In this document: positions 21,857 to 57,406 of the stretch, in pieces
Numbering within the stretch: position 1 is the first letter of the stretch
How the letters are laid out: the number at the start of each line of letters is the position of its first letter
IMG/VR virus record: IMGVR_UViG_3300001199_000005
Coordinates: 88,879-152,878 of that record
DNA length: 64,000 bases
Reading direction: 5' to 3' (one strand)
Source of the DNA: a virus
Program-made: the position numbers and the translations under genes
The notes under the pieces: generated by a model
The model's input: the letters and a program-made list of their open reading frames with translations, nothing else
Told to the model about the DNA's origin: nothing
Database searches by the model: none

Positions 21857-22089
21857 TAGAAAAAGTCCAAAAAGAGTTTCCAGAAGTGGATAAGAAAGCT
21901 GTACTAGATACAGTGTATATAGGACTAAAAAATATGTGTCAACTTTTAAGAAAAAGTCAAGATGTTTTTATTGACAACTCTAAAGGTAAGACACCTTATA
22001 TTTTTAGATGCTTTAGGTACAGATACTTAGATTACCATAATAGAAGAGTAAAACGAATTCAAAGACTAAGAGATGCAAAAAATAAATAA
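21829..22089 (+). CDS. Small IHF/HU-like protein
   Basis: 86 aa with a helical start DLIEKVQKEFPEVDKKAVLDTV and a basic C-terminus. Confidence 0.5.
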   Translation: MQQIRVQDLIEKVQKEFPEVDKKAVLDTVYIGLKNMCQLLRKSQDVFIDNSKGKTPYIFRCFRYRYLDYHNRRVKRIQRLRDAKNK

Positions 22090-33913: not shown

Positions 33914-36900
33914 ATGAATGAAGATTTAGATTTCGGGTTACTATATACGAATATGGCTCAAGCAGGACTTGAGCCATCTCCGCTTAATGTGGTTGGTATG
34001 CTTAATTTCCAAAAAGAGAAAGATAAGAATAATGCTTTAAAAATTGTCTTTGATGAGGAAAGTAAAGAGAATGTTAGAAAAAAACATGGGGAAGAGTACC
34101 TAAAGACTGTTCAAGAAAGCTATAATAATTATATAGCTAATGCCGACGCTTTGAAACATAAACAAGTATTTGCAACTTATGGCTATTTGGATAATAGAAT
34201 ATCTAAACACTTTAGACCTGAAAGTAATATACCATACAAGACAAATGATGTGCCTATTTATATGTCTTGGAACGGCACTACTAATCCTATTTATATTGAG
34301 CACCCAGAAAAGATTGCTTCATTGCATAATACTCAGTATATAAAAGGCAATTCTCTTGTCGATTTTGGTACTAGGACAATAAATGATGTAGCTAGCACTG
34401 CGCTAAATCACAATGAAGGTCTAGCTGCTTTAGCTACTTATGAAGATAGGTCATTGATAGATGATGAAATTGGTAACACATTAAAAAAGGCAATTAAACA
34501 AAAAGAAGTAGATAAGAATACAATCTATACTGATAAAGATGATAAGTTTATTTGGAAAATATACCCTGTAGGCAGCACAGAAGCAATTAAAGGACAAATA
34601 AGAGGTATTTGGGGTGATAGGACAATACAACAAGATAATGTTCTATCTGAAATGGGGCAATCTTTATGGGATTTGGCATTAAATTTTGCTGATGCGGGGA
34701 TGTTAACCGCCAAGGCGCTTCACACAGTAACTAAATTTCCAGACATTTTAACAGGCGGCTATTCTGATTTTATTGCGTCTATGACACAAACTAAACCAAA
34801 AAACATCATAGATGGTACATTTAATGCATATTTTAATTACAGTCAAGCACTAAAGTCGGCGTCTTCAAAAGAAGATGAAGGTGATTGGGCTACCCCTACC
34901 AACATCACTAAAATGGTTGTAGATGGTACTGGTCAAATAGCTGCTACAATACTTACAGGAGGTCTTGCAGGCGGTGGAACAAAATTTGTACAAGGTACAA
35001 GATGGTTTGGAACAAAAGCTTTACCTAAGTTCGGTACTGATACTTTAGGAAAACAAGCATCTAAGCATTTTAGTACTGAATTCGCTGGTAAAACATTAGC
35101 AGAACTAAATGCAAGAAGGGCAGGTTATGGTCTTAACATGGCGTTAGCGTCAAGCACAGGATATAAAGAAGCAAGAAGTCAGGGAATGAACGAAGCAAGT
35201 TCACTAGGGCTAGCAGCATTATATGGTGCTGCTCTGTTTGCAACTGAGAGATTTACTGGTAGCCAATGGATACAAAAAATAGGTAATAAAAACTTCAGAG
35301 AACAGACTGCAAAATATGTTATAAATGCAGTAAAGAATGAGGCAGATGTTCTAGGCATATCACTTAAACAAGCTGAAGCTAGATTTGCTAATAATACGAA
35401 TGGTAAGTTTATGGGGCTAGTTACTGGTTTAGCTTCTACTATTTATAAAACTAGTAAATGGATGGGAAGAAGACCAGAATCTTGGATGGTAGCTATCACC
35501 AAACCAGGAGTTGCCGAGTCAATTCAAGATGGTTCTGAAGGAGCCCTAAACTACTGGTCGAAACATTTAATTAATCAGGTACAGGACGATGCTAAATTTC
35601 ATTTAGGAGATATAACAGATTCAGTATTTCCTGGTATGGTTGGCGGTGGTTTAGTTGGTAATATTGCTGGTGGATTTAGATATGGATATTCTAGAAGAGA
35701 TATTAAAGAATCTTTAGAGAAACTTCCAGACGATATTAGAAAAAAAGAACTTATTAATCTTATTGTTTTTGATAATACAGAACATGAAAGATTTAATACA
35801 ATGATTGATGTAGTTCGTGAGTTGGGTCAAGAAGGTGCATTTGGATACGAGCATTTTGATTCTACATTAAGCTCTTCTGCGTCCAAAGAAACAGAAAGTC
35901 ATAATAAGTTCGTAGAAGAAATGCTTATTCAGGAAATATATCATATAAAGGGTATTTACGAAATATCAAAATCTAAGTTTCCACAATTTTCTAAGCAAGA
36001 ATTAGTAAAGACTGTTAGTAATATGCTGGGGAAAGAAACCAGCAGTAAAATTGCTAACTTAATAGGCTCTGACGGTTTGAGTACATCTATTGAAGCTAAT
36101 GCAAACTATTTATTTGGTGAAGCTATGATGGCAGCTGTAAAAAAAGATAGCTTAGTAAAAGAAATGGTTACCGAAAATCTATTAAAAGCTGCGCCATCTA
36201 TGATGATAGATGTTGACGATATAGTGGCTTTTAATGGTAAATTTTATGGTGTAAAAAAGAATGACGTAGTAGTAAATCTAAAAGATGAAGAAAGACTTAG
36301 GTTGGAACAAGCTTTTAACAATTCATATCAAAACTATCAGAAACTTGTTGATTCTAATAGCCATGCTATCACAGCTTATACAGATAAATTAGTTTTAAGG
36401 AATGAGGTCAAGAAGAAACTTGATTTATTACAAGGAGATAGTAAATTAAGAAAAGAATTAATAGCTGAATTAAATAATATAAATAAAGATATAGACACTA
36501 ACAGAGATGAACTAATACAAATATTTGGCTCTGAGTCAATTCTAAATAAAGCTATTGATTACAATACTGCTACAAAACTAGAATCTGAGTTAAAAGATGT
36601 TGAAAACGGTAGAGTTAGATTCTATGATAATTTAACCAAATTATTGCTATTTAAAAATGACAATAAAGACTTAAATATTCCTACTAATCCATTTGTAGTA
36701 TCTTCATACAGAAGAGATAAACAATTAGAACTGGAAGTACATAACAAATTGATAGAGGAACTTAACCAAAAAAACTTAGATTTGACTAAAGAAAAGAAAT
36801 TAGAATTTGAAAAGCTGCTAAAGGGTGACCTTAATTTATCTACAATAAAACAATTCTTTGATACATTTTCATTGTTGAAATTAAATCAATCAATTAATAA

Positions 36901-39900
36901 AGAACTAGAGGCTGAGTTTACCTCTTTATTTGAAGCTCTTAAAATGAAATTAGAAGCTTCTAAGCAAATTATACCAGATGCTGATTATAATAATAAGTCT
37001 ATACTAGAGAGTGCTTTAAAATTAACTGAAACTTTTAACACCGAACGAAAAAAATTAAATAAAAACCGTAAAAAGAGTACAAAAGAATTTCAATATGAAA
37101 GGATGTTACTATTAGATTCTGTTTATATACAGCTTGAGGAATTATTAAAGAAACAAATTCTGCAAAATTCTGATTTTTCTACATTAACTCTACTATTTGA
37201 TGATGATACAAGTAGAATGGTGGACTTATTGAATAAGTTTCAAACTTATAGGAACAACAAAAACTTAGACGGTATCAATAAGGATGAATTCGAAGCATTA
37301 AAAGAATTTTATAATAGCCTAGAATATAAACTATCTGATTTCTTTACACAATTAACTGTTGATTATGGCAATGGTCCAGAGCTTGATATAATATTCATTA
37401 AATATTTAATAGATAAATTACCAGTTTCTACTTATAATAGAAGTATTGATAAAACTATTGCTAATCTTAATCAAAAAGATGATAAAGGTAACTTATTACC
37501 AAGCTTTGTACTATATAGTGAGTATGAACAACAAAAGCCTAATGTAAGTTTAGGTTTAGCTCTGTATAATATTAATGAGGATGGATTATACACAACTTCG
37601 TTATTTAATGAAGTTACTAAATTAATTGATTCCACCTTTAATGAAATAATAAATGCTGATGGGACTACGACACTAGTACCTAAAGAAAATGTAGATAAAT
37701 TAGACGAAGCTGATATTCTTTTACATAAAATAAATACAAAGCTAGCAATGGCACACGCTTTGGCAATTGATAGTAGATACCAAAAAGATATTGTAGCTAA
37801 TGATAGTCAATACACCCCTTTCAGCCCTAGTAAAGAAACAGATATATCTGGAGTAATAATCAATCTAACAAAATTAAAACTGTACTTGGAAGGTAAAATG
37901 ACAGCAATGGCTGGAGAAAGAACTAAAAGAGAAACTCACGATATACGTGTAGGAGCCAGGTTTATACAAAGTAGAACCAAATTTATACTAGAACTACAGG
38001 AAATACTTGGTGAGAATAAAGAAAGAGATATATTGATTGAAGAATTAATAAGTAGTGATAAATTAAACGTAGCAGATTTAATAGCAGACCCTCGCTATGA
38101 TAAAGGCGGTCCAACATTCTCGGATAGAATTTACAAAGCGTTAGCCATTGTCTTAAAGCTAGAAACATTATTAGCCGATGAATTAAAAACTAAAACTAGT
38201 AATTCAGCAGATTTTGATACTTTCTTTGGTAGCGATAATTTCAAGGGTTATTTCTCTTTCAACTTAAATAAAAATATTGGTCTAACCGCGGGAGTGGATG
38301 ATTCCTATTTATATATGCAGGATTCTGTAACTTCAAAAGGCCTAGCAGGGCCAACAGACCCTAGAACTAATGAAGAAAGATTTAACTTTTATTTACACCT
38401 ATTAAGAGGTGGTAATAGAAATTTACCAAATCATTTCTTAGATATAGTAAATAAAATAAATAAAACAAATGCAAAAAGTCTTAATGATTTGAACAGTCCT
38501 ATTACTAGTATAGAACAATTCTTAGTGGTAAGACAAGGTATGAGCTTTTTGACAATGGATGCTACAGAGCTTCGTAATACAGAAGCTTTAAAAACTAAAT
38601 TTTACACTAATACAGATATAACTTCAAACTTTAAGGTAGGCGCACACCAAACATTAAATAACTTAGAAGAATTTGCTCCAGCTGGTCACTTAGGTATTGT
38701 GCCGCAATCATTATACATACCTGGTATGCCAAGTGCTGGTAAGACTACTTTCATAGTTACATACTTGACAACCTTCTTTACGGAGTACTATAAAGGAAAA
38801 AAAATAGCAATATTTACTCAAGGCGAGAATGAGGATATACTTAGTACTCTGCACGAAACGTTGCAAAATAATGGGTTAGATTTTACGTTTATTAAATCTA
38901 CGGATAATATATCATTAGATAGTTTTGATAATATTTTAATATTAACTGATGAATTTACATTAGTTAATGAAGTTGCTGATTATATATTCAAAGTTAGTGA
39001 AGATAACCGCGATGATGCTTCTTTTGTTAATTCTTTACAAAAAAATGTAGATAAGGTAAGAAGAGTATTTATAGGCGACCATTTACAAAAAACTAATGTA
39101 GACTCAGTTTCAAACACTGATAACTTGAACGTACAACTATTAAATACTTATCCTTTTTTAAACTTTATACAAGAAAGAACTGCTCCGCTTAATATGGCTT
39201 ATAGGTCTGGAGATATTAGTCACTATAATTTTGTAAATCAAATCAGAACAACCACTGTTGAAGCACAAAAAGCTCAAATCGTCAGTAAACAGATGAAATC
39301 TATAGCTAAAAACTTAATAGATGGTCTTTTAGTGAATACACAGTATGTAGAAAAAGATGGTCTAATAGAAGAAGGCGTTAAATTCACAAATAAAGCTGAT
39401 ATAATTAAATTAGCAGAAATCAGAGCTAGAAATCTTAAACCTGATGAAACAATGGTGGTAGTATCGGATTACGATAAAGATATACCAACTAGTTTACAAA
39501 GCTATGTAAAGAGTTCAGAGCAAGTTCAAGGTAAATCTTTTACTCATGTTTTTTCACTTATCTCTATTTCGGATAGCTTAGTGCAGATGAGTGCAGGCGA
39601 TTTTTACCCAGTTTTAGAACTATTAGCTACTAAGGATATAATTCACGAATCAAGTATTGTTGGAACACTTATTGAATTTATGAAAACTTATATGATGGTT
39701 TCTGGAAGAAAAACAAAATCATTGGTAATGTTAGGAATTAATGATAACTTTGTAAGTAACGCTGTCCCAGCAATCGCTAATTTCACTCAAATTAAAACTA
39801 AAGAAGGTGTATTGAATGATAAGCAAAAGAAACACAATAGCAAAATGCAAAGTGTGCTCAATAATCTTAATGACTCAACAGTACCTGAACTAGAAAATAT

Positions 39901-40186
39901 ACTTTCAACATTTAAAACCAAAATTGGTAAGCTTAGTACGGAACAGGAAATGAATGATTTACAAAAAGAAACTGAACCAATCATTACTGGTATGCTAGCA
40001 AATAAAGATATGCAGAAAAAATATCCTAATTTAAAGAATCAAGTTATGCTTGCTACCAATGAGCTGAACAACCTATTAAAGAGTAATGTTCTATCTTTAA
40101 CTCCAGTAGAAACTGGGGTGGCGATAGTCCCTAAAAAAACAAAATTAGCGGATGACGGTAAGAGTACCGAAAATAAACTGTGTTAA
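33914..40186 (+). CDS. Giant ejection protein with Gly-rich membrane segments and a C-terminal SF1 (RecD-like) helicase domain
   Basis: Hydrophobic Gly-rich helices at about aa 340-590; Walker A GMPSAGKTT (38723-38749), Walker B ILTDEF, FIGDHLQ, AYRS, VQGKSF and YMMVSGRK. Confidence 0.7.
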   Translation: MNEDLDFGLLYTNMAQAGLEPSPLNVVGMLNFQKEKDKNNALKIVFDEESKENVRKKHGEEYLKTVQESYNNYIANADALKHKQVFATYGYLDNRISKHFRPESNIPYKTNDVPIYMSWNGTTNPIYIEHPEKIASLHNTQYIKGNSLVDFGTRTINDVASTALNHNEGLAALATYEDRSLIDDEIGNTLKKAIKQKEVDKNTIYTDKDDKFIWKIYPVGSTEAIKGQIRGIWGDRTIQQDNVLSEMGQSLWDLALNFADAGMLTAKALHTVTKFPDILTGGYSDFIASMTQTKPKNIIDGTFNAYFNYSQALKSASSKEDEGDWATPTNITKMVVDGTGQIAATILTGGLAGGGTKFVQGTRWFGTKALPKFGTDTLGKQASKHFSTEFAGKTLAELNARRAGYGLNMALASSTGYKEARSQGMNEASSLGLAALYGAALFATERFTGSQWIQKIGNKNFREQTAKYVINAVKNEADVLGISLKQAEARFANNTNGKFMGLVTGLASTIYKTSKWMGRRPESWMVAITKPGVAESIQDGSEGALNYWSKHLINQVQDDAKFHLGDITDSVFPGMVGGGLVGNIAGGFRYGYSRRDIKESLEKLPDDIRKKELINLIVFDNTEHERFNTMIDVVRELGQEGAFGYEHFDSTLSSSASKETESHNKFVEEMLIQEIYHIKGIYEISKSKFPQFSKQELVKTVSNMLGKETSSKIANLIGSDGLSTSIEANANYLFGEAMMAAVKKDSLVKEMVTENLLKAAPSMMIDVDDIVAFNGKFYGVKKNDVVVNLKDEERLRLEQAFNNSYQNYQKLVDSNSHAITAYTDKLVLRNEVKKKLDLLQGDSKLRKELIAELNNINKDIDTNRDELIQIFGSESILNKAIDYNTATKLESELKDVENGRVRFYDNLTKLLLFKNDNKDLNIPTNPFVVSSYRRDKQLELEVHNKLIEELNQKNLDLTKEKKLEFEKLLKGDLNLSTIKQFFDTFSLLKLNQSINKELEAEFTSLFEALKMKLEASKQIIPDADYNNKSILESALKLTETFNTERKKLNKNRKKSTKEFQYERMLLLDSVYIQLEELLKKQILQNSDFSTLTLLFDDDTSRMVDLLNKFQTYRNNKNLDGINKDEFEALKEFYNSLEYKLSDFFTQLTVDYGNGPELDIIFIKYLIDKLPVSTYNRSIDKTIANLNQKDDKGNLLPSFVLYSEYEQQKPNVSLGLALYNINEDGLYTTSLFNEVTKLIDSTFNEIINADGTTTLVPKENVDKLDEADILLHKINTKLAMAHALAIDSRYQKDIVANDSQYTPFSPSKETDISGVIINLTKLKLYLEGKMTAMAGERTKRETHDIRVGARFIQSRTKFILELQEILGENKERDILIEELISSDKLNVADLIADPRYDKGGPTFSDRIYKALAIVLKLETLLADELKTKTSNSADFDTFFGSDNFKGYFSFNLNKNIGLTAGVDDSYLYMQDSVTSKGLAGPTDPRTNEERFNFYLHLLRGGNRNLPNHFLDIVNKINKTNAKSLNDLNSPITSIEQFLVVRQGMSFLTMDATELRNTEALKTKFYTNTDITSNFKVGAHQTLNNLEEFAPAGHLGIVPQSLYIPGMPSAGKTTFIVTYLTTFFTEYYKGKKIAIFTQGENEDILSTLHETLQNNGLDFTFIKSTDNISLDSFDNILILTDEFTLVNEVADYIFKVSEDNRDDASFVNSLQKNVDKVRRVFIGDHLQKTNVDSVSNTDNLNVQLLNTYPFLNFIQERTAPLNMAYRSGDISHYNFVNQIRTTTVEAQKAQIVSKQMKSIAKNLIDGLLVNTQYVEKDGLIEEGVKFTNKADIIKLAEIRARNLKPDETMVVVSDYDKDIPTSLQSYVKSSEQVQGKSFTHVFSLISISDSLVQMSAGDFYPVLELLATKDIIHESSIVGTLIEFMKTYMMVSGRKTKSLVMLGINDNFVSNAVPAIANFTQIKTKEGVLNDKQKKHNSKMQSVLNNLNDSTVPELENILSTFKTKIGKLSTEQEMNDLQKETEPIITGMLANKDMQKKYPNLKNQVMLATNELNNLLKSNVLSLTPVETGVAIVPKKTKLADDGKSTENKLC

Positions 40187-40199
40187 TAATACTTAAAAT

Positions 40200-43100
40200 A
40201 TGACAAAAAATAGCTTACTAAAATACAAAGCCCTTGAAGAAAAGTTTTTAACTCCTTGTGAGATTAACTATAGCTATAAAGACGACATAGAGATTATGAA
40301 GGCTTATAGGGAAAAAATTGCTAACGCTCATAAAAAAGCCGAATTAACTGAACATAAGCTAGTTAGGGATATGGTGGCATCATATTTATTAAATTATGTA
40401 AAAGATATGGTTAATTTTTTCTATACTTATGAAACAAGTAAATATATTGAATTAAGAAAATTTCTTGAAACAAGTTTTGGACAAATTACTGGAAAAGAAA
40501 CTCTTGTTGATAAGTTTAGAAGTGATATTATTACAGCTGTTTATTATGGTTTATATATACCAATAACTTATGATGTAGTACATAGAGCAGAAGATGGTAT
40601 TGAAATATCTGTTTTTACTAGCGATGAGGAGTTATATTTAAAACATTTATTTAATAATTTCTCAAGATATATAAAAGATAATGATGGTAGTGATTTATAC
40701 CGTCTTCTACTACTAAAAGAAGATGAGTTCACTATGGACAAGATTTATGAACTATTCGACATAACTCCTTATAATGAAAAACAAGAATATTCTTTCCAAG
40801 CTGTATCAGTACATTTAGTACCTGTTGATGAAGTGCCTACTTATAAACATAAAGTAGCAGACTCTTTTGATGAAGCAACTTCATCTGTTTTAAATACTAT
40901 TGCCAAAAAACTGATGAAAGAGGGGTTGAGCGAAGCAATAAAATTTATTCCTTGGGATGCAACAGTTACAATTAAACATAAATATCTTAATTTTATTTAT
41001 GGGTTAGCACAAAATATTAGAAAAGCTAGACAAATAAGATTTAATAAGGTTGGAAAATACACAAATATCTTTGGTAACTATTTACCACCAGAACTTAGGA
41101 ATGTAGAGTTCGCTTCAGATGAATATCAAGACTACAATAGTAGGAAAAATAGTGTTTATACTGCATTGTGGAGAAAACAACACTTACCTGGAAAATTTGC
41201 TTTTGAAATTATAGAGGACAGTACTCTGTCTTATGATGCTTATGTGCCTGGGCGTGGCTATCTGCATTACAGCCCGCTTGTCCTTACTTATACAGACGGT
41301 AACGAAAAACTAACACTTGCAAACTTCTTACCAATATATGAAGAAGCATTAAGATATTACCCAGACACTGAACGAGCAGAATATAGACAGAATTTTATAG
41401 ATTTATATAACGCTGTACGTGATTATCCTCAAAACTATATAATGTCTGAAGATGAGTTTCGTAAAAGGTATATGGATACTATATTCTTACCAAGACTTAG
41501 TTCATACTCAAGTCCATTTTTCATTACTGATTATGAACGATATAATACAAATTTTTTAATAGATACAGAAGACACTAATACAGGTGGTATGACTTGGACA
41601 CCAACTCTTACTGAATTTAGGAAAAGTTTTGGTAAAAGTTATGGCATTTCACAAGTGTATGTAGATACTAACCCAGAATCATCAGTGTCTGGTAATGAAT
41701 TTATACTATACTCCCCTTTCTTTACCTCTGCCCAAATAGATGAAATGATGACAGTTCCAGGGAAATTGGAATCTATTACGGACAATAAGGTGTCACTAGT
41801 GATAGAAGGTGTGCGCTCTGATAAATTTGAAAAAATACCAGGGTATGAACCACCAGTCGACACATTCTATCGTAGAATGTCTTCTTATGGCATAGGAATA
41901 ATATTTTTAAATAGAAGTACTGAACTTAGCAAGATTCAGCTCACCGACTATTTTGAAGTTACTAAAGGAATTACTAGTATTTTTGCTTCTGATGATGCTG
42001 AAGCAACTGACCACGGATTACGAAAAAGGACATTATTCAATCATGCACAATCAGCTTATATAGTACATAACCTATTAGAAACCTTTGTAAAATACGACCC
42101 ATCTAACTTATCATTTTTTAATAAGAAGGTATATGAATTTAAAAAGGATAATATCTATTTACCAACATTACTTAGCTTAGAACCTGGGTATACTGCTAAT
42201 GCAATAACTATAGATGGAAAAAATAAAATTATAGCAGCAGCCAAAGAAATGTACGGAGCTGGGAATTATATTTTAGCTGAACGAGAAACAGCAAATGCAG
42301 GTATCTTTAACCAGATTATACCTTATTTATATGTAAAACTATTTCAAAAAGACGCCCCTGGTTATGAAATTCAATTAAAGCGGCCAAATTTATCTTACTC
42401 TACAGCAGGACTTGTTAGTCTAAAAGATAAAAGCTTTTTAAGAAGAGTGTCTGATAAACATGTTTTAAATGTTATAAATAACAGACTTAATACTGAACCA
42501 AATTTAACTATATTTATAGGTAGGACAAATACAGAGGATGGTGTTAGTAAAGAATGGGTTACTATGGACGTACCATCCGATACTGAACTGGTTGTTTATT
42601 CCAAATACACTACTGGTTTTAAAGACCATATTAGGAAAGAACTAGAAAAATTTAACACTTTATATCAATACTCATCTCTTGAATATGCTAAAGAGATTGC
42701 TCATAGGTTGTATGGTTATCTAGGTTCTGTAGATTATAAAGAAAAAAATGAGATTGTTCGTTTAAATAATAAACTTAATCATGCAAAACTATTTAAAGAC
42801 GAAGATGGTAAAACACTTAAAGTGTTAAGTGCTGGTGTGCTAGAAGCTTCTTTTAATAAATTTTATCAGTTCTTCGCAACTGATGGTGGTATTTTTTCAA
42901 GACAGATTCTTGAAATGTTCCATTATTTAGGTAAAATATATCAAATTGATTCAAGAATAGTAGAGCCTTGGGCTTTAAGTAAGGTAAAGGTTACTCCAAA
43001 CATAGTTGCAATTTCTCAAAAAGTCCAATCAACAATATTCGGTGATAATATAAAAATCGCAGATAAAACATATCTTGATATAGAGAATAAATTAACTGTA

Positions 43101-49100: not shown

Positions 49101-52100
49101 GCTATTAAGGATAATGATAATAATAAAGTCAATAGACTTATTAGAGAAATTGATAATTTAGAAAGAGCTTTGCTTGGCAAATTTTCAGATATAGGAATGC
49201 TAGCAACAGCTTTATATACGGGTGCAGCAGATAATAGTACAATGACTCCTGAATTAGAAGATGCAATATTAGAAGTAATGTCTGATTTAGCAAAAGCTTC
49301 AAAGGGTATATTCTCTCGTATTCCTGGTACAGGTAAGAACTCATCGGAAATATTCCAGATAGTCGGATATATTGACAGTAATGCCAACGGAGTTTATGTT
49401 CCCGCATTATGGTTAGGTATATCAGGCTCAGATAGCGATGGTGACTCGTTACAGATGTGGCAGTATGATGTTAATAAAGATGTCAATAACTTAGAGAATA
49501 GTGTATTTAACTTTGTTTATAAAATTCTAAGTAAGGGAGTAAATGCAATAGAATTTTATTCATCTATTTCAACTGAGTCTACTGAAAAACGGGCTAAACT
49601 TGAAGCTAGTAAAATTAGTAATAACTTTTTCAAAACTTCTACTTTGTTCTTATCGGATATTTTCAGTAGAGTTTCTGCCTCAATAAACAACGGTACTGGT
49701 ACTTTAACTACTGGTGCAGTAGCTCTCCAATTAGCGGCTTTTAGTAGTGCCTATCAAACTCGTGTTTTAATTGAGAAGCATATAAAAGAGTTGGATTCTC
49801 TTAGTAATCCTTCAAAAGAAGATATTGAATTATCTTCACAATTAACTAGCATTCTACATTCAACCTTAACTTTACTTAGAAATGAAGAAACTGGAAATAT
49901 AGCTCCTAAATATGATAGAGTAGGAAAACCTAACCATAAATGGATAGAAACTTTCCTAAACTCTTCTATTGATAATCCAAAAATCTTGGCGCTTGGGGCA
50001 TTAGGCATCAATATCGAAAACGTAGATATTGAAGCTATCATGTCTTTCAACGGTATTTCAGAGAACGATATTATGGATTTCTTCACAAATCCACTTGTTA
50101 AAGAAATATTCAGTAAATACTCAAAAAAATCAGGAATAGAAAAAAGAAGTAACTTCGGTTTAATGGCTTATTTAAGAAGAGATTCCTTAATTAATGCTGG
50201 ATTTGGCGCAAGTAAAGTTATTAACGGTATGAATATATCTACTAACGCTGAATTAGATACAGAAGCCACTGAATATTATAGTGCAATAATATCAAAACTT
50301 AGAGAATCTAATATCGACCCAGGTACATACTTAGAAAGTGATGTCCCTAAACAAGATAAATTAAAGTTAATTAGCGCTATTATTTTAACAATGGTAAAAC
50401 AAAGAGCTAACTACAGGTCAATATTAAATGTAAGAAAGTCTACTTATGGTATTACTGGAGACATTACTATGCAGCCTTTTCAACTAAACACAATAATGAT
50501 GGGTTACGGCTTTAGTGATAAAGCAAAACTTTATGATGTGCTAACTCAAGTTTCTGAAGTACATAGATTTAATACTAAATTAAGAAGATTAAAAAATCTT
50601 AGTATAAATAAAAAAGAAGATTATAAAAAATCATTTAGCCGTTTTAATGAAGAGCTACAACAAATAGCCAATCAATATATAAACGATTTAATAAGCAAAA
50701 GAGATGTGGAAGTCCCAATTGTTAGTCCGTTGTCTATCAGCTCTATATCCGATATTTTATTACAAAACGATAAGGGATTTGATGGGTTTTTAGTTGCTAT
50801 ACATAGCCCACATTTAATTGAAACAGCATTGACACATTTAATATTTGATAATTATCGCGATGCTATATTACTTTATTCTTCACCAATTCTAGCTATTAAA
50901 GATTTCTTGTTGCATAAGGTATTCTCTAAGTACGGTGACAAAATATTTAAATATAAAAATGTTGATTCTATATTAGAAGCATTTTTAGCTTCCGAATATT
51001 TGAACAAAGGAGGAATTGATGATAGTCCTATAACTATAAATTTACTTGGTAAGTCTTATAATTTAAGTAAAGCAGCAGATGTAGATAGTTTTAAAAAACA
51101 ATTACTTATTGAACTGGTTAAGATAAGAAATCTAAAAAATACTAATCTTGCTTTCTTAGAGCATTTGATTGTAGCTGATAACATAAAATTCTTGAATGTT
51201 TCAGAAATAGATGTTGATATGTTTATAATGCAAGAGTTCAATAACTTGGCCAATTTTAGAATATCATCAAAAGACTCTCATAATCTAGCTGAATTATTGT
51301 TTTATTATACTCTACTAGAGTACGGACCAACATTTAAGGAGGGTAGCTTTATTAAATTTATAGGTCCTAGATTTACACAAGAGTTTTCAGCCTTTATCAC
51401 TAAACTAAATAATCTTACAGATGATGGTAATTTACCATTTACTTTAGAACGTATTGAGCAACTAATGGACAAGTTGGCTTATACACAAGCTAGTTACTTA
51501 TCTACAATTAATAAAAAGCTAACCGAAAAAATACCTATAACCTCTGAACTTTCTGAAAGGAAAAGCAGGTCTATGTATTCTGATATGTTTGGTGGCGTAA
51601 CTGAATACTTTGATACTTATACTGTAAGTAGAGTTGTAACAAGCGGCAAAGGAAAATCAGAAAAAAAGAAACCTGTTATCCTACATGAGTTTGAACCTGT
51701 AAATAAGTTTAGTGTTATTATAACCCGTATTAGAAATAAACTAAAAGACGATGAACTTACTATTAAGAGAATTAAGCAAAATAATAGAGCAATTGATAAA
51801 TTAATTAGAGAGGAAGGTCTGGAAAGGGTTATAGAGTCTAGTATAAAAGAATTGGAGAAATTAACCACTAAAAAGGAAAAATTAGCAGCTTCTAAGGCGA
51901 AGGAGGCAACAATAATCAGAAAAACCAGAGAATATGATATTAAAGAAACAACATTAAAAAATGCTTATGAAAACGCTAATAAAAGATTATTAGATTTAAG
52001 TACACGTAAAGAGTTCATAGATATTAGTAATTATGATAAAGCTAAGATTACCCTAAGAAGTATTAGTACTAAAGTAATGTCTGGAACATACACTAATGAA

Positions 52101-52892
52101 GCTTTAATTTACCTACTTGAGAACAAACTAATTAATCAAACTGAGTTTAATTCCTTAGCAGAAACTGTCTATTCAGAAGATGTTGAGGTTGATGGGCCAA
52201 AGATTACTATAAGTAAATACTTTAAAGTTGTTAGTTCTGATAAGGACTATGCAGCTATACCATTTAAATTTATAGGGTATAACAAAAAAGGTGATTATAT
52301 ATTTAAACCGCTAGTCAAGTCATATGCACATCCACTTGATTTTGGTTCAGACTCGAATTTAATTAATAGAAGAAATAATTTAACAAACTCTGAAATTATT
52401 GATACCATCAAAAAAATAGAGGATTTAATCGGCACAATAGATTATACTTTAAATGAAGCTAACAAATCCTTCTCATCTTTTAGTAGTGGAAGGCTTGTAA
52501 TAAATACTGCGTCGGCAACTATTAATACACCTATTACTGAATATGCCCCACTTGTGATTGAGTTAATTTCTAAAGATTCAGAAATATTTAATTCTTTCTA
52601 TATGACAAAAGAACAGCTTTTGGAAAGTATATTTAAAGGAGATAACCAAATAAAGTTGATGAACTCATTACAAAAACTGTTATTTAAAAGTATAAAAGAA
52701 AAAAATAATAAACTGACAGGATTAAGCTTATTAGCCCCAGAAATTAGGTTATCAACACTTATTGAAATAATACACTCATTATCAAATTCTATACCAACCC
52801 ACGTAGAAATGAACAGCACTCCAGTTATAATGCTCGTTGAGAAACTTACTGATGAAGATAAGCTAGACAATTCTTGCGCTAAACCTAATTAA
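40200..52892 (+). CDS. Virion-packaged two-barrel RNA polymerase (single 4230-aa polypeptide) with a zincin domain
   Basis: RIP...GSDSDGD catalytic loop (49431-49445), upstream WDG motif, DNPK motif and zincin RHEAMH...NEMLAE (43428). Confidence 0.85.
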   Translation: MTKNSLLKYKALEEKFLTPCEINYSYKDDIEIMKAYREKIANAHKKAELTEHKLVRDMVASYLLNYVKDMVNFFYTYETSKYIELRKFLETSFGQITGKETLVDKFRSDIITAVYYGLYIPITYDVVHRAEDGIEISVFTSDEELYLKHLFNNFSRYIKDNDGSDLYRLLLLKEDEFTMDKIYELFDITPYNEKQEYSFQAVSVHLVPVDEVPTYKHKVADSFDEATSSVLNTIAKKLMKEGLSEAIKFIPWDATVTIKHKYLNFIYGLAQNIRKARQIRFNKVGKYTNIFGNYLPPELRNVEFASDEYQDYNSRKNSVYTALWRKQHLPGKFAFEIIEDSTLSYDAYVPGRGYLHYSPLVLTYTDGNEKLTLANFLPIYEEALRYYPDTERAEYRQNFIDLYNAVRDYPQNYIMSEDEFRKRYMDTIFLPRLSSYSSPFFITDYERYNTNFLIDTEDTNTGGMTWTPTLTEFRKSFGKSYGISQVYVDTNPESSVSGNEFILYSPFFTSAQIDEMMTVPGKLESITDNKVSLVIEGVRSDKFEKIPGYEPPVDTFYRRMSSYGIGIIFLNRSTELSKIQLTDYFEVTKGITSIFASDDAEATDHGLRKRTLFNHAQSAYIVHNLLETFVKYDPSNLSFFNKKVYEFKKDNIYLPTLLSLEPGYTANAITIDGKNKIIAAAKEMYGAGNYILAERETANAGIFNQIIPYLYVKLFQKDAPGYEIQLKRPNLSYSTAGLVSLKDKSFLRRVSDKHVLNVINNRLNTEPNLTIFIGRTNTEDGVSKEWVTMDVPSDTELVVYSKYTTGFKDHIRKELEKFNTLYQYSSLEYAKEIAHRLYGYLGSVDYKEKNEIVRLNNKLNHAKLFKDEDGKTLKVLSAGVLEASFNKFYQFFATDGGIFSRQILEMFHYLGKIYQIDSRIVEPWALSKVKVTPNIVAISQKVQSTIFGDNIKIADKTYLDIENKLTVLHLPMSPQIGIGFNKAADVKIEEENDISDILNDESLWKQVPIIDIVGLDDSVEEVENVVKDILGTLPEGFTFSESIKDRYTGFNTFGRVAKGIFELASVDGKSSIKIARHEAMHKIVMEILDERSYQKLMNDLKAHYLTKFNKHGSFTQLNEMLAEYFEDYTSPRIFKSVPDSLKSFVQYLYELFLRVKSFFNNEAGLTLIMERANRGFFANQDMSFNRYQEDLFKHSELNIQDDILSRLGLPDLDILQPSYKIALVTNTIQNLRTTAYELVYGAELGKSINWNEAFNVIIEQAREEINSELGKSISDYLLSNVKINLTTAEQTNLVNDTKLFSKYLLARAGEVLKRIAIPYYDFDRKSTKEVLTDTEDLSEEDIETIEENIDETLLLGESPRLVSYNRDKISFKGTLTKKYKDHITTTTYINHLGMTVNVSLEAGLEIMSELLSMSNKVSKYVNNKDTKLTNDTFIKAFEALIIKHAERYRTKSNQEVSLKDAILILKSKSSNKDKQLLSLYTKFADITNKKSWAYAFTKEASALTTSAEVADRIKKQDALTAIVNQLSSMDNKVYNVQRVVEKSQTSKNTSRETNINNYRISRATVIKRFFSVIKLPDETQKVVPNPKITELHDNEFSKLTIGPNNSSLNLSFTAPSFFGISFANHVEPLKLVSNLISLKMVISYEADLKEDARSMVPSVFVFAKGVDSNGKEVSERLVFKETINTKADTSIRLTKSHSLFVPITTYILNNFLGLSLTNNTVNRYLMTNAESTLMGPINASIFLAAYYQQSKDKDVSKFRNFPMVKAIAEANLDITSEFYPGIDNLISEELPSPSGRSFGTFYDTITSMEFDKSTAKRNSVLRAYDGSKHPSAGLHTNFSKNINAGENFIQKIDEASSEAGVSLTEVTADELQDEIKLSSEELAELTKTKKIASRKDNIYNIAHTERPFEFNPFFRSPFYLDKLDIHNKVSIKFIENPITRASRSVHEMTKQDKYYNFLRTFFESSQGAISQLHENYTHIVEVQADREEFYGVSINKKYLRASGKGLINENLEATQMISQIFHQSSFEGYYVVQELLKALNSLELIKKEGAKKRTQGEIKIDNFNKAFEQIQRKFKILENLDKQLYSRNTNVAKNNRELRRNNLRLMIQRLFNNIDSELDGLLKASTNSRDVLNRVETPRIITNVSVTKNGITTKRLGVSPLLKYDLNLTEEEFNNSINDKILRFVVDMHNTMGFIPLYDKRVSVLANYPSAEFTTKFSKSVKEPFKKAVVEQTFFSDDILTKAKEDIENYLNVLTNEEKAKLVKEEIHPAIYDMYITYLINDNALNFLQIGSKYGYKQQSSYTEVDVQVGNELVTKIMPISEHETMVDLTKRLNGNTSPFISGQHFAVHRYKVRGVEVVEVVNDRAIEDENKTVIITDPLFDFEKEALDTLPFLIEAHLDDYLEIVNKNPDMGVLAQYLVSGFANNWETIPADIKARLILIAQELHKIKPWDGMVFKTFLGANLGRNSYGAQEGINQGPFEKNSYYDQNRKKNTVFYLKALTQILGVQQFLNGSETLRNWYKLSIGAGKLTDIVDYDWNLTTLSQTKVAPRNKTMFDVFMLRLTEALNNNPDIAVDDLKKIEDYVTEVYIDIRRKTVAILANNGTIPLDLNGYLLPDEKSPYGYSQPIHTIDPLSSVKLGNIIRNDYDQLADPTKHDSLNTFVYKMSSGGYILDLTKDLSEHETDIALSTQLLQVVGLMDESNVFDTLEVYELIAEIARTTREKVIKDIDDYAVEHGLNEKEGLRSFLKATLSESLEHRGELTQSYATASDKNSSASLPLLSRDLLNNLTTAINSGIRLRVKGFKGIQLSGHNLIPVYEDANGLIYTGLDLIRAQKRLEKVGKSFDFGVVKARNLKYSYIKDGVKVPTEVLTPRPYLVSGHYKLNKESFRDIYTINVNINGQLSGFEYAKFSEEHMMVFLTTFAESINWEKSPILKALIQVEVENLKQHTQEELSNQLHKAKKKLDNAIKDNDNNKVNRLIREIDNLERALLGKFSDIGMLATALYTGAADNSTMTPELEDAILEVMSDLAKASKGIFSRIPGTGKNSSEIFQIVGYIDSNANGVYVPALWLGISGSDSDGDSLQMWQYDVNKDVNNLENSVFNFVYKILSKGVNAIEFYSSISTESTEKRAKLEASKISNNFFKTSTLFLSDIFSRVSASINNGTGTLTTGAVALQLAAFSSAYQTRVLIEKHIKELDSLSNPSKEDIELSSQLTSILHSTLTLLRNEETGNIAPKYDRVGKPNHKWIETFLNSSIDNPKILALGALGINIENVDIEAIMSFNGISENDIMDFFTNPLVKEIFSKYSKKSGIEKRSNFGLMAYLRRDSLINAGFGASKVINGMNISTNAELDTEATEYYSAIISKLRESNIDPGTYLESDVPKQDKLKLISAIILTMVKQRANYRSILNVRKSTYGITGDITMQPFQLNTIMMGYGFSDKAKLYDVLTQVSEVHRFNTKLRRLKNLSINKKEDYKKSFSRFNEELQQIANQYINDLISKRDVEVPIVSPLSISSISDILLQNDKGFDGFLVAIHSPHLIETALTHLIFDNYRDAILLYSSPILAIKDFLLHKVFSKYGDKIFKYKNVDSILEAFLASEYLNKGGIDDSPITINLLGKSYNLSKAADVDSFKKQLLIELVKIRNLKNTNLAFLEHLIVADNIKFLNVSEIDVDMFIMQEFNNLANFRISSKDSHNLAELLFYYTLLEYGPTFKEGSFIKFIGPRFTQEFSAFITKLNNLTDDGNLPFTLERIEQLMDKLAYTQASYLSTINKKLTEKIPITSELSERKSRSMYSDMFGGVTEYFDTYTVSRVVTSGKGKSEKKKPVILHEFEPVNKFSVIITRIRNKLKDDELTIKRIKQNNRAIDKLIREEGLERVIESSIKELEKLTTKKEKLAASKAKEATIIRKTREYDIKETTLKNAYENANKRLLDLSTRKEFIDISNYDKAKITLRSISTKVMSGTYTNEALIYLLENKLINQTEFNSLAETVYSEDVEVDGPKITISKYFKVVSSDKDYAAIPFKFIGYNKKGDYIFKPLVKSYAHPLDFGSDSNLINRRNNLTNSEIIDTIKKIEDLIGTIDYTLNEANKSFSSFSSGRLVINTASATINTPITEYAPLVIELISKDSEIFNSFYMTKEQLLESIFKGDNQIKLMNSLQKLLFKSIKEKNNKLTGLSLLAPEIRLSTLIEIIHSLSNSIPTHVEMNSTPVIMLVEKLTDEDKLDNSCAKPN

Positions 52893-52897
52893 AAAAA

Positions 52898-55800
52898 ATG
52901 AACTGTTTAACACAAAAAAACTTTACCGCACCATCTGAAGAATCAGGCTATAAAAGATATGGGTCATTTGATATGTTTGAGGAATTAAAAACCTTATTCC
53001 CTTTAAACCAAGCACTACATTACTTTGATACTATAAGTTCAAAGAAATTTACTGATTGGGCCATCTCTACTGACGCTTTAATTCAACTTGAAGCAAACTT
53101 AGATAACGCCTTAGAAATTAAATTCAAAACAAGAAACGGACAAGAAGGAAAGTTTAATTCTTTTGAAACTCCTTATATTATCAGTGACCTAGTAGAAGAA
53201 TTTGAGAGTATTGGGCAACCAGAATTAGACCTTTTAGTTAAGCAATTTAGCTCTAAATTAGGCGTAGATGTAAAAATTATTGATGACCCTAAAAAGGAAG
53301 CAGGTTGGTTTTTAGGCAATACAGTATTTTTAAATAAGAACAAACTTAATGCTAGTATTTTATTCCATGAGTTTTCACACCCACTAGTTGCAGCAATTTA
53401 TAAGCATAAAAACGAATTATTTACCACTTTATACAAAGAAGCAACCAAAACCACTTGGGGTAGAAAGATAGAGCAAGAAGTTAAAGAAGACTCTTATTAC
53501 ACCAATCAAACAAAGCCTTCACAAGAGCAAGAAGTTTTAGTTAGAATATTAGGTGAATTAAGTAAACGAGATAAATATTCTAATAAATTCTTAAACGCTA
53601 TTGCAGAATTTGTAGAATATATAAGAAGTTTATTTATCAGTGAAAATACTAATATAGGCACATTAGGACTTGATGCTAGTTTATATGACATTTTAAGGAT
53701 TCTGAAACACTCTAAAAAAATATACACACACCCAACTGGCAATTTTGCAACTTTTGTTAAAATTCAAGAAATCCCTTATCTATCAGAAGTCTATCCGAAC
53801 TCACAACCCGATGATTATATATACCGCTCAGAAGGAACTATAATAGTAGCTAGAAAAAATAAGAAAGATAGGTTAGAAGTTACATATTGGAACAAAATAG
53901 AGGATGGTATAACTGATTTAGTTTTTAATAAATCTATAATACTAAATAAAGATTTAGAAAAAGCATTAGAAACAGTCAATCAGTTATCAGTATTTGTTGA
54001 TGATTCTATGTTTTGGGCCCCCTTCCGTACAAAATTTACACAAGCAGTAGTACTAAGCAACAAAGCTACAAGTATTGAGGACTTTGCTAATATGTTATTT
54101 CCTCCAAAAGACAGTATTACTGATGAAGTAATAGATTCTCTTGGTATATTAACACTGGTAAAAAGAGTTGGTAATTCATTAGTAGTGCCAGTTTACACAC
54201 TAGAAAATAATATTTTAAGTAAAGAAGAAGTAACCTATTCAATTAATTTAACACCCACAGTAGAACAATCTATCAGGAATATCATTAAACAAAATGAGGT
54301 TGTTAAAAAACAGTATTTTGAATATTTAACTTCTCTAGCTAAAAGTGATATAACACAAATATCAGACAAAGGAAGATTAGAGGGCGCTCTACATAAATAT
54401 TTTGAAGATATTACAGAACCATTAGAATCCATATCTCCTGAGTTTGATAGTCTTGGTATAAAAACTACTAAAGTAGGTAAAAATACTATGATTATGGTGG
54501 AAGAATACCAAAGTGATATTATTGTCAATTCAGGAAGTAGTCAAACAAATTTAGCTAAGTCGTTATTAAATATGGATAAAGATGACCAAACATTTTATAA
54601 CTACTACTTCAAAAATAATCAAGCATCTAGGCGTGACTTTTTTATTGCATTGGCTATATTACAATTACAGCAACGTAATCCTGACATTCAAATTGATGGT
54701 ATAAGGGTTTTAAGCAGCGAGGGTGCAGTTTACAGACCATTGGTATTTGAAGTTGTTTCATCTATTAAAATGTTCCAAGATGAAAGATTAGAAGAATATG
54801 TTCCAGACGATTTAAAGAACTTACTAAATACAACAAACTTTAAAAAAGCTTTTGACCAAACAGCAGTTAATAGTCTGGAGTACTTTTTAGAAGTAAAAGA
54901 TACTGAGCATACAGAAAGTAATTCTGCGTTGTTAGATATTATTAAAACTAGTAATTTAGAAGAAATAAGAGAAGCTATTAAAAATAAGCTTAAGTCACTC
55001 TATAAGGTGTTAGCTGTTGATGGTATCAACCCTTCAACCTTTTATTGGGAAGCGCCAGACCATCCCTTATATCCTTTACTTATGGTTTTAACACGAGCTT
55101 ACCATGAAATAGAAAGAATGGAAGAGGGTGTGGACTTGCGCCATTTGAATAATAGAATGCACTTAACGACTATTGAAAGCTATACTAAAGATGCAGGAAG
55201 TTATATTGACCCAAAAATTAATTGGGTTTTAGGTAATATTAGGTCAATTCTAAATAGTGTACGTGAATATATTTTAACAGATTATAAAAATAGAAGAGAA
55301 GCTATTTTTAAAAAATTCTTTGATACTGTTAACACCAGAACATTAGGGGAAACTATTATTAGAGTGGATTCACAAATTTACTCCAATCTATTCCAAACAA
55401 TGGATATGTTGATAGCAGAGAACAACGTGCACCCAGATAAATGGAAAACTAAAAAAACACCAATAATGGCGCTAAAAGAAGTTGATGATAAAACATTAAG
55501 TTCTACAGAAAGGGAATTTTTAATATCTTTTTATGAGCTTATGGATAAAGAAGTCGAAAGATTAGTAACAGCTCACTTTAACAATATTGGTAACCCTGGA
55601 TTAATTTCTGATTTTATGAACAATAAATACCGACCAAATAGGCATTTATTGCCAGTACTAAAAGGTGGTAGAATTGAAAATCTATTAAAAAATGGACTAG
55701 GCGCTGCATTAGACCAATTATTATTAGAAGATTTAGAGTTTGAAACTACAGGTTATTTAAAAGGTAATTACGGCTTAGAGGCATTAGATTTACTTATGCC

Positions 55801-57406
55801 TCAAATACCGCAAAACGACACTAATATTAGTAGATTATTTGGTTCTGAACAACGTATGAGAGCGCTTGGTATTAGCCAATTAAATGGAAAATATATCATT
55901 GAAAATCTTGCAGATAATAATAGATTAACATTTGACTTACAGTTTATTATAGATTACTTTGCTTATCAAAGTGCAAAATCTTCAACAAGACCGGAAATGC
56001 TTACAGCTTATCTTTCTGGAAGACTACTAATGCTAGCAGCTGAGGCAGAAAAAAGAAATTATAGTAAAGCCGATATTTCAGCGGGAAGAGACGCGCTAGA
56101 TAGTATGGTTGCACGATTATTAAATAATGAACGTACATCAATAATAGCTGGACATGATACAGATATTGGAAAATTAGCAGACTTTGTTAGACGTACAACA
56201 ACTGCAATGGCGCTTAGTTTTAATATAGCCTCACCATTATTAGCTCTTTCTAGTGGTTTTTTTGGATTACTAACTAATACTTCAGTAAATAGATTTGGTG
56301 ATGCTTTCTTTGGATTCAATGATTTAGGTTCAGCAGTTAGCTTTCTTGCTTCCAGTCCAAAAAAATTCTTTAACTTAATTGATAAGTTTTTTGCTATTAA
56401 TGAAGGTGATGATACATCAATTATGTTTGATGATTTTCATAAAACCAAATCAACTGGAGAGTATGAAACTAGGTTTGCTACAAAGACACCTATGATGTTG
56501 TTGAGAATGGCTGATAGAATCTCTAAAGGAGTGGTTTTAGTAGCTCAATTATATAAAGATAATTTATTCGCAAACATAGTATTTGAAGATGATGGGCAAA
56601 TATGGTATGATTGGTCTAAGGATAACAGACCTACTCCAATAATACAACATTTAAAAAAGCAAGCTAAGAAATGGAACAGATTAACTAATGATGAAGGCTT
56701 TCCAAGAATTCCTTATGATGATAGGACATTAATGGCTTTAGAATTGATTAGTACCAAACTGTTTGGTACAATTAGTGATAATACTAAAAATAGAGGTTTT
56801 AACAATCCTATTTTTCAAGCAGTTTTATCAATGAGGACTTGGGTTTTAGGAAAGTTTGATGATGTTTTTAGTAGAAAGTATGTTAATGAAAATATAGCAA
56901 CTAATAGTGTAGATGAGGATAATAATTTTACTTTAAATATGATGACAGTAAGTGGTGTAGGGCTATCTTCTTTAAAAGCTGTAAAAGCTTTTTTCTATGC
57001 AATGCAGGTATACAGCCAAACAAGTAAATGGGAATTTAGTAAATATAGTAACTTAGATAAAACAGAAGTAACTAATTTAAAAAAATTAGGTGTAGATATA
57101 ATAACTTGGGGAATAATGACTATCATGTATTCAGGACTAATTAGTTTACTTACAGATGAAAAAGATGAAAGAAGAAACCGCAAATTAATGTATTTAAAGT
57201 TTATGATACTAGATATTGTTGCTGCTTATAATATGCATGATTATCTTGACGCAATAACGCCAATATTTGTTACAAAGATATTAAAAGTTGGTGATGCAAC
57301 TATTGATTTAATAACATTACAAGAAGGTTCTATAACAAAAGCTATTAAGACAACTAGTTTTGGTAATACATCTATTAGTATATATGAAGCATTAAACGAA
57401 AAATAA
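52898..57406 (+). CDS. Giant ejection protein with an N-terminal zincin metalloprotease and C-terminal hydrophobic helices
   Basis: FHEFSHP...QEVLVR zincin; hydrophobic segments ASPLLALSSGFFGLL and IITWGIMTIMYSGLISLL. Confidence 0.7.
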   Translation: MNCLTQKNFTAPSEESGYKRYGSFDMFEELKTLFPLNQALHYFDTISSKKFTDWAISTDALIQLEANLDNALEIKFKTRNGQEGKFNSFETPYIISDLVEEFESIGQPELDLLVKQFSSKLGVDVKIIDDPKKEAGWFLGNTVFLNKNKLNASILFHEFSHPLVAAIYKHKNELFTTLYKEATKTTWGRKIEQEVKEDSYYTNQTKPSQEQEVLVRILGELSKRDKYSNKFLNAIAEFVEYIRSLFISENTNIGTLGLDASLYDILRILKHSKKIYTHPTGNFATFVKIQEIPYLSEVYPNSQPDDYIYRSEGTIIVARKNKKDRLEVTYWNKIEDGITDLVFNKSIILNKDLEKALETVNQLSVFVDDSMFWAPFRTKFTQAVVLSNKATSIEDFANMLFPPKDSITDEVIDSLGILTLVKRVGNSLVVPVYTLENNILSKEEVTYSINLTPTVEQSIRNIIKQNEVVKKQYFEYLTSLAKSDITQISDKGRLEGALHKYFEDITEPLESISPEFDSLGIKTTKVGKNTMIMVEEYQSDIIVNSGSSQTNLAKSLLNMDKDDQTFYNYYFKNNQASRRDFFIALAILQLQQRNPDIQIDGIRVLSSEGAVYRPLVFEVVSSIKMFQDERLEEYVPDDLKNLLNTTNFKKAFDQTAVNSLEYFLEVKDTEHTESNSALLDIIKTSNLEEIREAIKNKLKSLYKVLAVDGINPSTFYWEAPDHPLYPLLMVLTRAYHEIERMEEGVDLRHLNNRMHLTTIESYTKDAGSYIDPKINWVLGNIRSILNSVREYILTDYKNRREAIFKKFFDTVNTRTLGETIIRVDSQIYSNLFQTMDMLIAENNVHPDKWKTKKTPIMALKEVDDKTLSSTEREFLISFYELMDKEVERLVTAHFNNIGNPGLISDFMNNKYRPNRHLLPVLKGGRIENLLKNGLGAALDQLLLEDLEFETTGYLKGNYGLEALDLLMPQIPQNDTNISRLFGSEQRMRALGISQLNGKYIIENLADNNRLTFDLQFIIDYFAYQSAKSSTRPEMLTAYLSGRLLMLAAEAEKRNYSKADISAGRDALDSMVARLLNNERTSIIAGHDTDIGKLADFVRRTTTAMALSFNIASPLLALSSGFFGLLTNTSVNRFGDAFFGFNDLGSAVSFLASSPKKFFNLIDKFFAINEGDDTSIMFDDFHKTKSTGEYETRFATKTPMMLLRMADRISKGVVLVAQLYKDNLFANIVFEDDGQIWYDWSKDNRPTPIIQHLKKQAKKWNRLTNDEGFPRIPYDDRTLMALELISTKLFGTISDNTKNRGFNNPIFQAVLSMRTWVLGKFDDVFSRKYVNENIATNSVDEDNNFTLNMMTVSGVGLSSLKAVKAFFYAMQVYSQTSKWEFSKYSNLDKTEVTNLKKLGVDIITWGIMTIMYSGLISLLTDEKDERRNRKLMYLKFMILDIVAAYNMHDYLDAITPIFVTKILKVGDATIDLITLQEGSITKAIKTTSFGNTSISIYEALNEK

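Follow-up and report, generated by a model that had tools for sequence, protein, structure and literature searches.

Three consecutive giant genes of a virus were found to encode proteins, designated A, B, and C, that contain only four cysteine residues among 7822 amino acids, with all four positioned at the protein ends that face one another across the two gene junctions. The genes are located in the window analyzed here, the right-hand 64 kb (positions 88,879 to 152,878) of IMGVR_UViG_3300001199_000005, one virus record of 152,878 bp (32.7% G+C), for which the CheckV completeness is 85%. All coordinates are window positions. The comparisons presented below show that selection maintains a cysteine on both protein ends that face each other at a junction, and at no other place. 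Inter-chain disulfide bonds are favored because of this selection and because of a precedent in the cyanopodophage A4 (Anabaena phage A-4L), and we regard it as rather probable that such bonds tie A, B, and C into one thread.

An earlier note on this DNA had placed the four cysteines at C2090 of A, C20 and C4226 of B, and C3 of C, and translation of the three genes reproduced every residue number and codon (Table 1). The outer ends of the trio, which are the N-terminus of A and the C-terminus of C, were confirmed to be bare. The cysteine content of all other open reading frames (ORFs) in the genome is 1.16% (429 of 36,932 residues), and at this rate approximately 91 cysteines would be expected in the trio versus the 4 observed (Poisson P of ~1e-33). 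At a rate of 0.31%, which is that of the least cysteine-rich other large virion protein, the probability of finding zero internal cysteines is ~3e-11. The depletion acts on the protein because the two reading frames that are not used contain plenty of TGT and TGC codons (28-173 per gene). With four cysteines placed uniformly at random, the chance that each lies no more than 20 residues from one of the four facing ends is ~1e-8. The four-cysteine pattern in A, B, and C is real and is not the product of chance. Other proteins of the phage carry scattered cysteines, as the same note had stated; there are 6 in the 533 residues of TerL, 4 in the 469 residues of the major capsid protein (MCP), and 18 in the 1048 residues of RNR.

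Read-through between the genes, which the note had also dismissed, and frameshifting were rejected because A and C share one reading frame and B is in another, stop codons are present, and the genes are separated by spacers of 13 and 5 nt. A misassigned start codon for B was rejected since codons 2-20 include no in-frame ATG, GTG, or TTG. A lipoprotein signal was rejected since the N-terminal cysteines are not preceded by a signal peptide.

The three genes are co-directional and are the last of the structural module, downstream of crAss-type genes for TerL (phrog_6681), portal (phrog_6547), and MCP (phrog_11589) on the same strand, which is the same setting as that of the corresponding block in Cellulophaga phage phi14:2 and in crAss001. 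A phmmer search with residues 3031-4230 of B against 1.84 billion representative proteins returned 12 relatives, whose identity to B is 27-33% over the best matching stretch and approximately 20% over the whole of the resulting alignment (A1). The three aspartates of the DSDGD motif (D3078, D3080, and D3082) are invariant in this alignment. A profile built from residues 2600-3400 of B matches phi14:2 g066 (E value of 1e-16), a virion RNA polymerase (RNAP) with a crystal structure, and crAss001 gp50 (E value of 2.8e-15). The profile segment at DSDGD aligns with residues 1314-1375 of g066, which contain DFDID at 1361-1365, and the core of B is thus homologous to those of g066 and gp50 and shares their DxDxD motif. 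The HEFSH motif of C is conserved as HEFxHP in three orthologues (alignment A2; 22-25% identical) in which M1 and C3 are also invariant. It has no significant Pfam match, and C resembles phi14:2 gp65, for which a zincin domain has been described (10.1101/2020.03.07.982082), at the level of the motif. Homologues of C were identified in L001 (1554 residues) and L008 (1170 residues), where C3 is again the sole cysteine, and as residues 5084-6351 of the fusion protein P0010. Protein A is homologous (E value of 5e-19) to a protein of 1918 residues in L007, whose sole cysteine is found at position -2 relative to the C-terminus and which is followed by a B homologue with C7. On the basis of the g066 and gp50 profile matches, the DxDxD motif, the candidate zincin motif of C, and the gene position, we identify A, B, and C as the RNAP-associated cargo block that corresponds to gp67-gp66-gp65 of phi14:2 and gp47-gp50-gp49 of crAss001.

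The corresponding proteins of phi14:2 are virion components, and its polymerase, gp66, enters the host together with the DNA (10.1101/2020.03.07.982082). Those of crAss001 are also virion components, and the authors of that study expect the cargo to pass the tail partly unfolded (PMC10172136). The block described here differs from both. The A-B-C chain is longer (7822 residues versus 5398 and 6102), B contains approximately 1600 extra N-terminal residues, and the N-terminal cysteine of B is found at residue 20 rather than at residues 3-8. In addition, nothing in the known phages matched A, B, or C by PHROG, Pfam, or tblastn. No significant family emerged when these three and the upstream proteins were scanned against PHROG and Pfam, 50,697 phage records contained no tblastn match to A or C, a word-indexed search for B at similar lengths retrieved B alone, and a search with the head of C against IMG/VR loci found no related locus. 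The best tblastn matches of the portal in the same 50,697 records are two unclassified human fecal phage records (34-35% identity), followed by Crassvirales, and a protein of the size of a muzzle protein (22073-26947) is homologous to a protein in MT835470. The phage belongs to a divergent crAss-like lineage.

The cysteine signature of the trio is identical to that of the cultured phages. In phi14:2, the sole cysteine of g067 (1797 residues) is the last residue, g066 (2180 residues) has only C3 and C2179, and g065 (1421 residues) has only C3. In crAss001, the sole cysteine of gp47 (2341 residues) is at -2 and that of gp49 (1349 residues) is C5, and gp50 (2412 residues) contains C5, a cysteine at -8, and one internal cysteine. 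The crAss001 gp47 gene is encoded on the strand opposite to gp50 and gp49. The cysteine rule thus belongs to the proteins and not to the DNA at the junctions, and a DNA-level signal at the gene junction was rejected for the same reason. Among the relatives of B, six that are full-length (3614-3933 residues) each contain exactly two cysteines, at residues 5-8 and no more than 2 residues from the C-terminus. A seventh, which is cut off at the N-terminus, has its only cysteine as the last residue, and two longer ones (4237 and 5176 residues) have a sole cysteine at or next to the C-terminus and none at the N-terminus.

In all, 20 chains from IMG/VR, metagenomes, and GenBank were analyzed, representing cultured crassviruses, Steigviridae, Intestiviridae, Suoliviridae, Flavobacterium phage Fpv1, unclassified phages, and three contigs in which TGA is recoded. 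The 53 proteins of these chains total 120,132 residues and contain 67 junction-facing cysteines and 65 internal ones (0.054%). Cysteine was found on both facing ends at 33 of the 34 junctions, and none of the complete outer ends (the N-terminus of the first protein and the C-terminus of the last) carries one. A blind control was conducted in which a junction qualified if both ORFs were at least 800 residues long and a cysteine was located within 10 residues of both facing ends. Among junctions of ORFs of at least 800 residues, 30 of 37 qualified, versus 4 of the 246 other junctions in the same DNA (Fisher P of 1.6e-29). The seven failures consist of four junctions upstream of the RNAP block with no cysteine on either side, the A-B junction of the window (owing to the position of the B cysteine at residue 20), one Carjivirus orphan, and one junction in the IAS virus record, which has unresolved bases.

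A further test of the pattern is provided by natural changes in how the block is divided. P0010 (6386 residues), another relative of B, matches the core of B over residues 3782-4515 and is homologous to C as noted above, and is therefore a fusion of B and C; it probably represents the whole chain in one protein, and it contains no cysteine at all. In Fpv1, one protein of 4401 residues that includes the RNAP core replaces gp67 and gp66 of phi14:2, and its only cysteine is at -1. The opposite change is found in L001, where one ORF encodes the first part of the polymerase core (profile positions 11-534, ORF1) and another the rest (564-706, ORF2). The new junction reads KYCMNN-stop followed by MAKLGFKC, with cysteines at -3 and 8. 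A second split can be seen by comparing the metagenomic phages L009 and L010, which are 89% identical: L009 encodes proteins of 3177 and 879 residues versus one protein of 3667 residues in L010. The ends created by this split in L009 (KKHCS-stop and MLC) carry cysteine, and the whole form in L010 has none at the corresponding place. The break in L009 (14114-15245) is due to an insert of approximately 313 residues that brings the cysteine-tipped ends with it, and a Pfam search of this insert found no nuclease or other domain.

The sole unpaired junction of the 34 is in L004 (MT835470.1), the closest GenBank relative by portal, in which the RNAP gene is interrupted and the two resulting ORFs, of 2275 and 983 residues, have no facing cysteines. 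A LAGLIDADG homing endonuclease ORF (Pfam E value of 2e-26) was found between them on the minus strand (5941-7002), with a sub-threshold group I intron match on either side, both on the expected strand and in the expected order. The interruption is probably a group I intron that is spliced, so that no protein junction is formed, and the absence of facing cysteines is as expected if the flanking ORFs are spliced exons. Taken over these loci, the presence and absence of the cysteine pairs follow the splits and fusions of the proteins and are independent of gene adjacency. The prediction of the earlier note that orthologous trios would have paired terminal cysteines that are lost at fused junctions was thus borne out, with 33 of the 34 junctions paired and the fused junctions bare.

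These observations bear on the possibility that only the depletion of cysteine is functional and that the terminal residues are tolerated leftovers, which at the ends of a chain would not impede its unfolding or transit. Cysteine suppression is known to operate without any terminal cysteine in the ejection proteins of Schitoviridae (PMC11445570), and 7-8% of the ordinary proteins of the 152,878-bp genome have a terminal cysteine. Tolerance, however, predicts that unpaired cysteines would turn up now and then at all kinds of ends, including the outer ones. Pairing at 33 of 34 junctions, bare outer ends, a cysteine-free fusion, and cysteine pairs at two natural splits are observed instead. The residue also persists as its position drifts (3, 4, 5, 7, 8, and 20). 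We strongly disfavor this explanation and consider it very improbable.

A4 offers a direct precedent for the A-B-C junctions. Of two adjacent giant ejection proteins of this phage, gp27 (1717 residues) has a sole cysteine at 1715 (position -2), and gp26 (1114 residues) has a sole cysteine at residue 5. By cryogenic electron microscopy, Cys1715 of gp27 was found to form a disulfide with Cys5 of gp26, with the C-terminal helix of gp27 locked into gp26 (PNAS 2025, PMC12002296). The same arrangement, a near-sole cysteine at the upstream C-terminus and another at the downstream N-terminus, is found at both of the A-B-C junctions. No match was obtained at an E value of 0.01 when A, B, C, and the upstream proteins were compared by phmmer with gp26-gp29 of A-4L, and the resemblance is thus one of mechanism and not of descent. 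Unlike the A-B-C block, A4 belongs to the Saffermanviridae, has one link rather than a chain, and has no RNAP. The bond in A4 was reported as a detail that stabilizes the pentameric pre-ejectosome and not as a rule tied to splits and fusions (PMC12002296).

We propose that internal cysteines have been purged from A, B, and C and that the remaining four constitute two junction-specific pairs. In the assembled virion, C2090 of A would be joined to C20 of B, and C4226 of B to C3 of C, by inter-chain disulfides. Such bonds would link the three polypeptides, which are translated separately, head to tail again as one thread of approximately 0.9 MDa with uniform N-to-C polarity, and this thread would be the covalent, post-translational equivalent of the fused polyprotein found in some relatives. 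Internal cysteines may be excluded because any other cross-link would form a loop unable to thread the tail channel, which would be in addition to the rationale of periplasmic oxidation discussed below. With each cysteine within a few residues (0-8) of the end, only short side stubs would be left at each link. The reducing cytoplasm of the host would then open the links and free the polymerase, and such reductive release is plausible. Of the earlier proposal that A-B and B-C are linked, the pairing is well supported as a selected feature. We infer the disulfide chemistry itself, the timing of bond formation, the role in ejection, and the release by reduction. The same proposal had put proteins with membrane segments at both ends of the chain. 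A Kyte-Doolittle scan identified no such segment in A and one or two weak segments in C, and this part of the proposal is weak.

It is also conceivable that the terminal cysteines are functional with other partners, for example in A-A and C-C homodimers, in a ring closed by C20 and C4226 of B together with an A-C link, or in anchoring to the portal or the capsid interior during packaging. Sequence cannot assign partners to the thiols, and gp57 of crAss001 forms disulfide-linked homodimers (PMC10172136). Orphan terminal cysteines exist as well, one on the protein of 368 residues upstream of the trio (Table 1) and one on a Carjivirus protein of 1304 residues (L019, 213-4127), whose next protein has no cysteine; these imply that some terminal cysteines have another partner or none. 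Facing cysteines nevertheless come and go together, with both present at 33 of 34 junctions and neither in the fusions, bare outer ends are not predicted by the anchoring or homodimer models, and the equivalent pair in A4 is bonded to each other. We consider other partners to be unlikely.

A slightly less likely explanation, in our judgment, is a junction without a disulfide. The facing cysteines would jointly bind a metal, or they would act as a cysteine switch, with a terminal thiol capping the zinc of the zincin domains (HEFSH in C and HEAMH in B) and keeping a protease latent until ejection. The conserved HExxH motif of C is located approximately 150 residues from C3, and a nearly invariant zincin-like motif, TPIHExGH, is found in the relatives of B approximately 115 residues from the C-terminal end and its cysteine. 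A metal site needs more than two thiols, however, and no conserved histidine or cysteine was seen beside them. Junctions that are far from zincin motifs, such as gp67-gp66 of phi14:2, also obey the rule. In B itself, the C-terminal motif reads TPITEYA (residues 4110-4116; 52527-52547), with the histidine and the glycine lost, and C4226 is still retained, as is the second HExxH motif of B (HEAMH, residues 1077-1081).

Several points weigh against a disulfide-linked thread. The cysteine on the protein of 368 residues is a terminal one with no partner in the next protein, and the chain model leaves it unexplained. The N-terminal cysteine of B is at residue 20, compared with residues 3-8 in all 30 other junction heads, and C20 is not in the alignment column of the cysteines of its relatives. 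This cysteine has apparently changed place without being lost, which is more in keeping with selection for a thiol close to the end than for a fixed structural site. The TGA-recoded relatives tolerate up to 8 internal cysteines, so the purging is not absolute; these relatives (L011 and L013-L017) keep every terminal cysteine pair in their chain proteins. They are crAss-like contigs in which the giant genes are open only if TGA is read as tryptophan, with 4-26 recoded codons per protein. A complex prediction that combined the tail of B (residues 3930-4230, alignment A1) and the first 330 residues of C (alignment A2) gave a score of 0.02, with the fold of the partner uncertain, and has no bearing on the thread in either direction. 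On sequence alone, the four thiols could also be paired in ways other than the A-B-C chain. The time and place of any oxidation are hard to assign, since assembly takes place in the reducing cytoplasm and gut phages live under anoxic conditions. In the literature, no such bond has been observed in any crAss-like phage, and the reports on crAss001 and phi14:2 do not mention terminal cysteines or any link between these proteins (PMC10172136; 10.1101/2020.03.07.982082). In favor of the thread, disulfides are present in crAss001 virions, where several were found in gp57 and the tail (PMC10172136).

The depletion of cysteine has a known counterpart in the ejection operon of the Schitoviridae (N4 gp50, the virion RNAP, with gp51 and gp52; gp71-gp73 of DEV), which is cysteine-suppressed (PMC11445570). 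In homologues of gp71 the cysteine content is 0.00075%, versus 0.865% in proteomes, and the published rationale is passage through the oxidizing periplasm (PMC11445570). In both systems a giant virion RNAP and its ejected partners are nearly free of cysteine. Unlike the N4-type proteins, which have no terminal cysteines, A, B, and C keep four conserved terminal ones with none internal, and the N4 polymerase is a single polypeptide. The polymerases of N4 and phi14:2 also differ fundamentally in global structure: that of N4 resembles mitochondrial RNAP, whereas gp66 of phi14:2 is related to the RNAPs of RNA interference and has domains like those of multisubunit RNAPs (PMC13434306).

It was known previously that crAss-like phages have an RNAP block, that the block is located in the virion, and that it is sometimes fused into a single polyprotein (PMC10172136; 10.1101/2020.03.07.982082). 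We found no description in the literature searched of terminal cysteines in crAss cargo, of their order-wide conservation, or of their coupling to splits and fusions. The statement of the earlier note that no such description was known is qualified by the published cysteine suppression of the Schitoviridae (PMC11445570) and by the A4 disulfide (PMC12002296). How protein amounting to megadaltons, including the polymerase that starts the infection, passes through the narrow crassvirus tail is an open question. Crassviruses are more abundant in the human gut than any other phages. Bayfield et al. (2023) stated that the ejection order and the interactions of the cargo proteins are unknown. A covalent thread, if it exists, would explain 1:1:1 packaging and ordered N-to-C ejection, would explain why function survives when the genes are fused or split or change strand, and would offer a redox trigger for early transcription.

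A more general rule can be put forward tentatively, although we think it somewhat doubtful. The RNAP cargo of crAss-like phages would be functionally one thread in which each break is repaired after translation by a clasp of terminal cysteines. A single covalent thread of ~0.6-0.9 MDa would be ejected, and reduction of the clasps in the host cytoplasm would be the switch that frees and activates the polymerase for early transcription. The clasp would have arisen independently in A4 and would perhaps be widespread in podophages with large internal proteins. For annotation, giant cysteine-free proteins with cysteine-tipped facing ends can be used to mark ejected cargo chains, and the cysteine rule helps to distinguish true protein ends from genes that are split by introns.

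Table 1. Proteins and motifs of the A-B-C block and its upstream neighbors (window positions)
Feature	Position	Strand	Description
368-residue protein	30714-31820	+	only cysteine is the last residue (ends IKLC-stop; codon 31815-31817)
674-residue protein	31851-33875	+	cysteine-free; directly upstream of A; outside the cysteine chain
Protein A	33914-40186	+	2090 residues; first in chain; sole cysteine is the last residue, C2090 (ends NKLC-stop; codon 40181-40183); N-terminus without cysteine
Protein B	40200-52892	+	4230 residues; contains virion RNAP core; cysteine only at C20 (codon 40257-40259) and C4226 (codon 52875-52877; fifth residue from the C-terminal end)
HEAMH, B residues 1077-1081	43428-43442	+	zincin-like HExxH at motif level; RHEIxH in relatives; no Pfam match
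DSDGD, B residues 3078-3082	49431-49445	+	metal-binding motif of two-barrel RNAP
Protein C	52898-57406	+	1502 residues; last in chain; sole cysteine C3 (codon 52904-52906); C-terminus without cysteine
HEFSH, C residues 157-161	53366-53380	+	candidate zincin motif

Two further proteins are encoded immediately upstream of A. The protein of 368 residues and A end in the same last three residues (KLC), and no homologue of the former was found in the loci examined. Cysteine-free proteins are found at the place equivalent to that of the protein of 674 residues in other crAss-like phages, for example in crAss001 (gp46, a cargo protein) and in L018, L020, L021, and L025. The structural module of the window contains four cysteine-free proteins of 233-674 residues (14030-15007, 18950-20044, 28148-28849, and 31851-33875), and these, including the protein of 674 residues, are candidates for further ejected cargo.

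Thioredoxin (PF00085) was not found in the 152,878-bp genome. Two Intestiviridae loci, L019 (27090-28357) and L022 (26780-27055), contain one or two thioredoxin genes annotated by the depositors, which are encoded on the opposite strand, 2-3 kb past the point at which the RNAP cargo block ends.

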